Of a DNA stretch of 28,644 nucleotides, positions 13,364-13,938 are shown in pieces (position 1 is the first letter of the stretch; each line of letters opens with the position of its first letter). Made by a program: the position numbers and the translations under genes. The stretch comes from a virus (taxonomy: Duplodnaviria; Heunggongvirae; Uroviricota; Caudoviricetes), in the IMG/VR virus record IMGVR_UViG_2711768060_000004, positions 1-28,644 of that record, one strand, 5' to 3'. The notes under the pieces were generated by a model. That model saw nothing but the letters and a program-made list of their open reading frames with translations, made no database searches and was not told the origin of the DNA.

Positions 13364-13516
13364 TTATTCAGATTTGCGCAGTAAAGGCCGGAGCACGACC
13401 AGCGCCATCGCCACCAGCACACCATCTGCCAGCACCGACATCAGCCGTCCGGTGAAATCCATCACCACTACCAGAAACAGCAGGATGGCAGCCAGCACAA
13501 GGCGCGCACTTTTCAC
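13364..13516 (-). CDS. Small hydrophobic protein (50 aa), translationally coupled to TerB-like gene
   Basis: GTG start overlaps the TerB-like TGA stop (GTGA): (M)KSARLVLAAILLFLVVVMDFTGRLMSVLADGVLVAMALVVLRPLLRKSE, two hydrophobic helices. Not in the ORF track. Confidence 0.35.
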   Translation of the reverse strand: MKSARLVLAAILLFLVVVMDFTGRLMSVLADGVLVAMALVVLRPLLRKSE

Positions 13517-13938
13517 AGGTACTGCTCCAGCGGCAACTGCAGCGCCTGAGCAATTTTCTTGAGCTGTGCTTCTTCATCCGGACCAATGCCATCCTGGTCT
13601 GCGATATCCAGACACAGGCACAGCACATTAACTGCATCATCAGTACCGGCAACATCAGCCAACTGACGAAGGGCTTCAGCATTGGCAGAGCGCGGCGACG
13701 CTTCATAACGGGCGCGGATATTTGCACTCATTTGTGCAATCTCACCCGAGAACGGCGCAAAAGCAGGAAGTGCTGCAATGGTTTTCTCCAGCACAGCGAT
13801 TTCTTTCGCATCACAGGTGCCGTCGGCGAATGCTATGGAATACGCGCCCCAGACAGTCGCCTCCACTGCGTCGCGGTTCTCCATCTTCTTCACTTCAGTA
13901 ATGGCCTTGCGGGTTTTCTTTTTGAAAATACCAAACAT
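13513..13938 (-). CDS. TerB-like (tellurite-resistance TerB / DjlA N-terminal domain family) protein
   Basis: 141 aa; AGGA Shine-Dalgarno. Helical protein with acidic patches (AFADGTCDAKEIAVLEKTI, DIADQDGIGPDEEAQLKKIAQAL) typical of TerB-domain proteins. Family call from memory. Confidence 0.5.
   Translation of the reverse strand: MFGIFKKKTRKAITEVKKMENRDAVEATVWGAYSIAFADGTCDAKEIAVLEKTIAALPAFAPFSGEIAQMSANIRARYEASPRSANAEALRQLADVAGTDDAVNVLCLCLDIADQDGIGPDEEAQLKKIAQALQLPLEQYL

Follow-up and report, generated by a model that had tools for sequence, protein, structure and literature searches.

The annotation of phage P1 by Lobocka et al. 2004 (GenBank AF234172) reportedly lists a run of genes, tciA-tciB-tciC. 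In the P1 GenBank record each of the three overlaps the next by 1 nt, the names are given 'by homology', and the genes lie downstream of C1-controlled Pban promoters. Later papers quote the homology-based name only, and tciA, tciB and tciC all score as non-essential in a CRISPR interference (CRISPRi) screen of P1 (PMC10695390). Here we describe a related locus in a window of 28,644 nt (the whole of IMG/VR record IMGVR_UViG_2711768060_000004, positions 1 to 28,644; Caudoviricetes), a lambdoid prophage in which orthologues of P1 tciA and tciB follow a structured RNA leader. As in P1, TciA (85.1% identical to its P1 counterpart over the full 141 aa) is followed by an overlapping TciB of the DUF3927 family, and a DNA methyltransferase gene and then tRNA genes lie upstream. 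The window differs from P1 in having no tciC, the alignment with P1 ending at the tciB stop, after which a hairpin and terminator follow; in its gene junction, GTGA rather than TGATG; in its leader, for which P1 has no counterpart; and in its setting, a Q-dependent late operon rather than the C1-controlled ban operon. Our best explanation, to which we give a probability of roughly 0.6, is that the pair is orthologous to P1 tciAB, that TciB anchors the TerB-fold protein TciA, and that a pseudoknotted RNA leader gates their translation by sequestering the Shine-Dalgarno (SD) sequence.

The wider relatives of TciA are the TerB proteins. TerB reportedly partners the membrane protein TerC (PMC11003894), a TerB-like domain adjoins the transmembrane (TM) helix of DjlA (bioRxiv 10.1101/2024.08.29.610257), and the TerB domains of the Bunzi and Shango systems have been proposed to act in 'membrane surveillance'. 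With TerB of the terZABCDE operons and the TerB-like domains of DjlA and YebE (DUF533), TciA shares its Pfam family, its fold and two acidic DGxxxxxE motifs, and it would also share their association with the cytoplasmic membrane through a partner or TM helix. It differs from the canonical proteins in its weak sequence similarity: the match to Pfam TerB (PF05099) reaches 30.5 bits against a cut-off of 24.4 (E 4.9e-7), with the best stretch confined to residues 11-57, although PHROG 632 'tellurite resistance' is matched at 1e-64. Because a phmmer search of PDB sequences with TciA matched no TerB chain and returned only spurious polynucleotide phosphorylase (PNPase) matches, a fold search was needed, and in it the AlphaFold model of TciA matched the TerB-family structures 2H5N and 2OU3. 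The TerB-like assignment made by an earlier, sequence-only reading of this region therefore stands. As modelled, TciA is a soluble, six-helix, all-alpha protein of TerB fold. The only match in an NCBIfam scan was to DjlA, below threshold. Within the acidic D-G-x5-E motifs, D39, G40, E46, G117 and E122 do not vary among nine aligned sequences of distant homologues, and D116 hardly varies among 32 aligned sequences; selection on the protein is strongly purifying, with a ratio of nonsynonymous to synonymous substitution rates (dN/dS) of 0.02-0.06. In contrast to the ter operons for tellurite, phage and colicin resistance, the window has no terC, terD or terZ neighbours, and the RefSeq annotation of a 97% identical locus shows no ter genes within 8 kb on either side; the membrane partner is instead a separately encoded 50-aa peptide.

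The tciA-tciB pair

The 50-aa peptide had been described as an unannotated, GTG-initiated hydrophobic open reading frame (ORF) overlapping the stop of the TerB gene. The ORF, its GTGA overlap and its two hydrophobic stretches are confirmed, but it is not new: the peptide matches Pfam DUF3927 (PF13064) at 52.6 bits (cut-off 25) and PHROG 1470 'TciB-like', the family has 174 database homologues, and the window sequence aligns in register with P1 TciB at 47% identity. RefSeq annotates both genes in hundreds of E. coli prophages; in those nearly identical to the window, TciA is called 'tellurite resistance TerB family protein' and TciB 'DUF3927 family protein'. Given these annotations and the P1 tciA/tciB records, the pair was already known, and the finding of a TerB gene with a coupled peptide is correct but ordinary. 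Hydropathy places DFTGR/DG between the two hydrophobic stretches of TciB, a peptide predicted to have one or two membrane-embedded helices. Its invariant residues are R5, D20-F21-T22, S27, D31-G32 and P44, and its many substitutions are hydrophobic and fall mostly in the C-terminal third. No holin family of Pfam or PHROG matches it. One might ask whether so small a frame is a gene at all or has simply stayed open by chance in GC-rich DNA, for it is short, begins with GTG and has dN/dS values of 0.2-1.2 in close pairs. Conservation refutes this idea, whose probability we put close to nil: the frame is open, at 49-55 codons, in 86/86 loci (80 IMG/VR contigs plus reference loci), the peptide matches its Pfam family well above the cut-off, the motif D-F-T..S...D-G..V persists down to 35-47% identity in homologues from P1, Aeromonadaceae and Pseudomonas phages, and dN/dS against P1 is 0.24, there at saturated dS. 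Since a genome scan of species representatives yielded TciB at only 6 loci, its phyletic breadth rests mainly on phage collections.

The coupling of the two genes is tight. They meet at ...TAC CTG TGA, with GTG A.. in the +1 frame and a GGAG 8 nt upstream of the GTG, and the CTGTGA junction is conserved in lambdoid loci. In a TciA-based survey, every one of 80 viral loci had a TciB-like ORF ending about 150 nt after tciA, so the two genes do co-occur. The pair is kept in P7, the N4-like Salmonella phage SP-076, the Erwinia jumbo phage Caitlin and the Pseudomonas phage phiK7B1, and homologues with an 8-nt overlap are found in an Aeromonadaceae metagenome-assembled genome; in one Vibrio phage a different membrane protein stands beside the TerB gene in place of TciB. 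Two independent natural TerB-DUF3927 fusions (P0171 and P0247, one per clade) have TerB N-terminal to the hydrophobic part. These database proteins, of 196 and 197 aa, apparently arose by an indel at the overlapping stop/start junction and are possible natural 'Rosetta-stone' constructs. The small gene can also outlive its partner: twelve IMG/VR loci (L031-L041 and L054) retain only residues 73-141 of TciA (PHROG 9865), followed by an intact tciB. A further relative, PP818812 ('Actinobacillus phage vB_Apl-pPE4', our locus L003), shares 95.8% of its nucleotides with the window across tciAB and the holin, has an identical TciA and carries IsrK- and C4-like RNAs at L003:1995-2183; its host label deserves a check, because the sequence looks like an E. 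coli lambdoid phage.

We propose that TciB is made in a fixed ratio to TciA, by termination-reinitiation at the observed overlap with its own SD, and that it would anchor TciA at the cytoplasmic face of the inner membrane. Tethering is suggested by the two natural fusions, the partnership of TerB with TerC, the TM helix beside the TerB-like domain of DjlA and the 'membrane surveillance' proposal for Bunzi and Shango. The tethered pair would then be a split version of the TM-helix-plus-TerB arrangement of DjlA and YebE, and of the TerB-TerC pair, and might buffer or sense membrane or divalent-ion stress in lytic development. Such a complex would be dispensable for plaque formation.

A conserved pseudoknotted RNA leader

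Translational riboswitches, RNA thermometers and preQ1-type pseudoknot switches place a conserved multi-helix fold directly upstream of a start codon, and so does this locus. Covariation identifies the 134-nt tciA leader as one instance of a conserved, pseudoknotted RNA motif some 125-135 nt long. The sequence-only reading had called the leader structured, with inverted repeats; it is real, conserved and covarying, but the repeats as such are not what supports it, since the single-sequence folding z-score of the window leader (-1.68) is not significant alone. The evidence is covariation. Compensatory changes are found in helices P1, P2, P3 and P6 and in the pseudoknot (RNAalifold and pair counts). 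The hairpin P1, GCGCC/GGCGC in one form, becomes ACATC/GATGT, CTGTC/GACAG or CACAC/GTGTG in others; P2 changes from CCACAGAG/CTCTGTGG to CCGTAGAG/CTCTACGG; P3 occurs as GGGTGAGC/GCTCACCC, GATAGAGCC/GGCTCTATC and others; and an A-U to G-C switch flanks P6 (alignment columns 60/156; AU in 35, GC in 11). The pseudoknot joins the loop of P1 to a segment just 5' of GGCTC, with examples CGCCC/GGGCG, CGCTC/GAGCG, GGCTC/GAGCC, TCTCAC/GTGAGA, TTCTCG/CGAGAA, CGCAC/GTGCG, TCACCC/GGGTGA, TCCACC/GGTGGA and TCACAC/GTGTGA, and for 14 of the 16 distinct loop types the cognate 3' segment holds 5 or more nt complementary to the loop. Covariation lies above all controls. For the whole structure, 80.8% of cells are paired (72.8% after shuffling) and the covariation score is 0.216 (0.083 after shuffling, at most 0.072 with slid partners), while 18 pairs and 153 cells carry double-sided changes (12.3 and 54.3 after shuffling); not one of 500 shuffles reached any of these four values. 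A covariance model built from 17 seeds finds a single copy in the window (13936-14072, 131.5 bits) and 75 matches in 78 loci, and it rejects six loci that fit a text pattern for the motif by chance. The structure is thus well supported by covariation; the regulatory logic and trigger proposed below are hypotheses.

The 3' part of the fold bears directly on translation. As an extension of P3, helix P6 pairs the invariant CCTTTC with the SD AAAGG, the SD-containing strand CTAAAAGG facing CCTTTCAG, so that P3 and P6 together make a 16-bp helix with one mismatch and one bulge that buries the SD. Classes with a fully extracted 5' strand give this helix an energy of -16 to -23 kcal/mol; the -6 to -9 obtained in four type-B classes (type B being a sister variant of the motif) are underestimates, the 5' strand having been cut short on extraction, and in the L087 lineage the helix is degenerate (-8.1 kcal/mol). 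For the window leader, a fold constrained to contain the helix lies within 3 kcal/mol of the minimum free energy. The start codon follows AAAGG at a fixed spacing of 8-10 nt. Riboswitches are recognised by a conserved structured aptamer and an expression platform, and the motif has a covarying, multi-helix pseudoknotted fold and an SD-sequestering helix. Because the 5' strand of P2 abuts CCTTTC with no linker, P2 and the full P3+P6 helix are sterically implausible together, and this suggests a two-state switch. One state would be a P2 and P3 pseudoknot with CCTTTCAG as a loop and the SD free; the other would be the long SD-sequestering helix. As in other SD-sequestering leaders, an anti-SD strand pairs with the SD, and on steric reasoning the pseudoknot would compete with that helix. 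Sequestration would shut off translation of tciA, and of tciB with it by virtue of the coupling, for as long as the fold is not remodelled. Candidate triggers are temperature, a ligand or ion, a protein of the phage or host, and a small RNA (sRNA). In several prophages (L006:2528-2672, L187 and the L174/L085 leaders) the G-run of the P3 5' strand, GGGG in the window (14027-14024), has grown to about 8-13 G; prophage 2015C-3108 combines an expanded run with an internal stop in tciA. This may be slippage-prone homopolymer variation.

What the sequence-only reading missed is that the leader is an independent RNA module common to unrelated genes. A 211-nt query (window 13900-14110, running from the upstream terminator through the leader into the first 39 nt of tciA) matches 1309/5426 complete E. 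coli genomes, about a quarter, and in the sampled viral loci no form is met more often than the window's variant. The leader also precedes tciA in Erwinia and Salmonella jumbo phages; the Erwinia copy is 71% identical in nucleotides, and its TciA about 42% identical. An IMG/VR scan for the pattern AGAGCCTTTC...GCTC...AAAGG gave at least 120 matches. Among the matches listed, 118 have a callable downstream ORF, which in 58 cases scores as TciA. Frameshifts or mis-calling obscure tciA in a handful of others (the LVFLVK and MFVFLV groups, for example), and six matches fit the pattern by chance; the rest precede Rha, KilA-N, Bro-N, HNH or unknown ORFs. Roughly half of the sampled instances stand before genes other than tciA. 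Such functionally heterogeneous downstream genes set the leader apart from metabolite riboswitch regulons and offer no hint of a ligand. Type B is present in at least 157 phage records, including 73 Stx2a-converting phages, HK639, HK106, CUS-3 and g341c; its place in HK639 is ahead of rha, after the lysis cassette and a terminator, and pPE4 has both variants in one phage. The annotated starts of rha in HK639 (L308:2601-2747) and of KilA-N in pPE4 (L003:5781-5917) fall inside the motif, and because the motif predicts a start 8-10 nt after AAAGG, both coding sequences are probably annotated too long. In E. coli O104:H4 C227-11 and related genomes (L005:2497-2627), a decayed leader with the first ~30 tciA codons lies between insertion sequence elements beside hypT, annotated by RefSeq as a partial 'DUF3927 domain-containing protein' pseudogene.

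PeSL elements belong to T4-type phages, and the leader might be something similar, a module boundary that acts as DNA, whether recombination linker or mobile regulatory cassette, and is conserved for accessory-gene shuffling. Its 5' border is the exact point at which upstream contexts diverge, it sits precisely where these unrelated contexts meet the downstream gene, the genes that follow it come from at least five unrelated families, and tciAB can occur without it. We nevertheless consider this explanation quite unlikely: compensatory changes that keep both the loop-to-3'-segment pseudoknot and the SD pairing are expected of a coding-strand RNA rather than of a duplex-DNA recombination site, and the fixed distance from AAAGG to the start codon argues in the same direction. 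The two roles are not mutually exclusive.

In contrast to known SD-sequestering leaders, this one matches no Rfam family. Nothing in Rfam 15 reaches the gathering threshold at the leader. With the limit relaxed to E up to 10, a scan of window 13150-15300 placed no family on it: Pseudomon-Rho overlaps on the opposite strand only (+ strand, 13787-13877; 22 bits, gathering score 45), and SorY (19.4 bits against 111) and Leu_leader (14.8 against 50) lie over the terminator and the end of the 194-aa ORF that precede the leader, barely touching the leader's 5' edge. Five other motif instances, scanned at E up to 1, gave nothing at the motif, the IsrK, C4 and STnc100 models matching elsewhere in those loci. 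Full-text literature searches found no description of the motif, which is weak evidence of absence, some literature being out of their reach. It is also possible that the element is processed or acts as an RNA of its own, as an HDV-like (hepatitis delta virus) self-cleaving ribozyme of order a-b-c-c'-a'-b', as an RNase P or RNase E site linked to tRNAs, or as an Hfq-binding sRNA. The helix order P2-P3-P4-P2'-P3' does resemble a nested double pseudoknot, the motif often comes right after tRNA genes, and many sRNAs are known from this region of lambdoid prophages. We think this very unlikely, however, as no Rfam ribozyme or sRNA family matched even at E up to 10 and no terminator separates motif from ORF. 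The HDV-like ribozyme was rejected: the catalytic C position has no invariant C (TT in the O157 type), and a conserved P1 hairpin lies upstream, unexpected 5' of a cleavage site. Prophage sRNAs such as AsxR, AgvB, PasA/C/D, STnc100 and IsrK resemble the leader in lying 3' of the late promoter, near the tRNAs and lysis genes of prophages of enterohaemorrhagic and enteropathogenic E. coli (EHEC and EPEC), but differ in sequence, size and architecture; AsxR and AgvB, which are EHEC anti-sRNAs, measure 51-60 nt and occur in convergent pairs (PMC4104026). The EPEC Pas sRNAs adjoin esterase and holin genes, and identity with them was rejected, because, even with up to 3 mismatches allowed, the PasA and PasD fragments (PMC8550237) match nowhere in the window. 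The leader may overlap an unnamed Hfq-bound prophage RNA.

Returning to the SD-sequestering leader that we favour, a bolder proposal can be made, tentatively and at rather less than even odds. The leader would represent a new class of phage-borne riboregulator, a double-pseudoknot switch of ~125-135 nt that travels with accessory ('moron') genes across lambdoid, P22-like, Stx and jumbo phages and gates their translation by a host or infection-state signal (for instance an ion, a small molecule or a phage factor), so that tciAB and the antirepressor-like Rha, KilA-N and Bro-N genes would be co-regulated post-transcriptionally in antiterminated late transcripts.

Several observations weigh against our overall explanation. 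P1, P7, SP-076 and the Pseudomonas phages carry tciAB without this leader, as judged by the covariance model, so being regulated by the leader is no inherent property of the pair. The pseudoknot helix is only 52.9% paired in the automatic alignment, owing to register shifts, and an L056/L087-type lineage has a degenerate pseudoknot and helix. The switch model itself is suggested by steric reasoning. As for the proteins, dN/dS of tciB is high in close comparisons; an AlphaFold2 model of a natural TciA-TciB fusion, whose confidence in the TciB part (predicted local distance difference test score, pLDDT, 53-62) is too low for use in topology, has a helix break at SDG that disagrees with the DFTG turn from hydropathy; and the TciA and TciB names come from homology only.

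Prophage context and expression

All relevant genes of the window lie on the minus strand (Table 1), in the order Q-like DUF1133 protein, DNA methylase, tRNA-Thr and tRNA-Gly, 194-aa ORF, tciAB, two holins, M15 endolysin and terminase. The prophage is lambdoid, of a phiP27/Stx-phage-like kind, and the leader, tciA and tciB form a cassette of three parts within its late operon, in a 'moron slot' with the Q-like antiterminator and tRNA genes on one side and the lysis genes on the other. A terminator stands immediately 5' of the RNA motif in most other instances too.

Table 1. Coordinates of the tciAB cassette, its flanking features and the elements of its leader
Feature	Position	Strand	Evidence or detail
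Intrinsic terminator of the upstream 194-aa ORF, directly 5' of the leader	14080..14101	-	Terminator scan: AGGCTACGCATTTGCGTGGCCT then TTTTTTG
Structured RNA leader	13939..14072	-	Covariance model, RNAalifold and pair counts
Leader, hairpin P1	14068-14064 / 14057-14053	-	Loop 14063-14058
Leader, long-range helix P2	14042-14035 / 13994-13987	-	CCACAGAG/CTCTGTGG
Leader, invariant CCTTTC	14034-14029	-	Pairs with SD in P6
Leader, helix P3	14026-14019 / 13965-13958	-	
Leader, hairpin P4	14009-14005 / 14001-13997	-	
Leader, pseudoknot 3' strand	13973-13969	-	GGGCG, pairs with P1 loop
Leader, SD-containing strand	13956-13949	-	CTAAAAGG, pairs with CCTTTCAG
tciA, predicted 141-aa cytoplasmic TerB-fold protein	13513..13938	-	ATG 13938, TGA 13513; two (A)DGxxxxxE motifs
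tciB, predicted 50-aa DUF3927 membrane peptide	13364..13516	-	GTG 13516, TAA 13364; own SD GGAG inside tciA
Intrinsic terminator at the end of the tciAB cassette; the holin starts 25 nt further on	13301..13316	-	GGGCCGCTGGTGGCCC then TTTTTT
First holin of the lysis cassette (context, outside the tciAB unit)	12883..13275	-	Pfam Phage_holin_8 81.7 bits, PHROG 198

This position raises the question of when the pair is made. The proteins might serve lysogenic conversion or defence, expressed from the prophage and acting on lysis timing, superinfection exclusion or phage defence, as their place beside the holin might suggest and as the sequence-only reading hinted in naming phage-defence contexts of TerB domains. 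Terminators bracket the cassette as they do classical morons; in O157-type prophages, where the order is Q, tRNAs, leader, tciAB and a sialate esterase gene, the cassette takes the slot that the stx genes occupy in Stx phages; and phage resistance is linked to ter operons as well as to the Shango and Bunzi systems, which contain TerB. We nevertheless think a prophage-expressed moron unlikely. A consensus scan of 13939-14080 found no sigma-70-like promoter between the flanking terminators, although weak promoters could escape such a scan, and no PADLOC family matched TciA, TciB or the 194-aa protein at E up to 0.1, which leaves the suggested defence context without a counterpart there. Nor is the holin connection borne out: the pair lies far from lysis genes in P1, P7, SP-076, Caitlin and phiK7B1, the sialate esterase gene separates it from them in O157-type prophages, and we find no specific link of tciAB to the holin. 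The absence of a promoter-like site between the terminators, the C1-controlled ban promoters ahead of the P1 genes and the presence of the pair in virulent N4-like and jumbo phages together point to expression in lytic growth rather than lysogenic conversion.

Other features of the locus deserve mention. The 194-aa ORF (14108-14692, -), between the tRNAs and the leader, has terminators on its flanks (14753-14734, 14716-14699 and 14101-14080); its sole match is PHROG 5091 (unknown function), with no significant Pfam family, and other genes fill its position in related phages. tRNA genes lie immediately 5' of tciAB or its leader in very different phages: Thr and Gly in the window (14995-15148, -), Asn and Thr in P1 with Ile after tciC, Ile and Arg in O157, Cys in jumbo phages, and Asn, Thr and Gly in JLK-2012. 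A sok antitoxin RNA, present at full length (20006-20178, -; Rfam RF01794, 93.7 bits), implies that the prophage has a hok/sok-type toxin-antitoxin locus in its early region.

What, then, does the locus add? The protein pair is a known, widespread and uncharacterised accessory module and adds little in itself. Our additions are the tightness of the two-gene coupling, the natural fusions and the occurrence in virulent phages; taken as a whole, these point to a TerB function exerted in the lytic phase while tethered to the membrane. The interesting result is the leader, a widespread, modular, pseudoknotted and SD-sequestering element of phage accessory genes for which we found no prior family. 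If it is indeed a switch for antirepressor-like and TerB-like genes in late transcripts, it would be an unrecognised layer of phage gene control in major pathogens, and a compact natural SD-gating device with many orthogonal pseudoknot 'addresses'.

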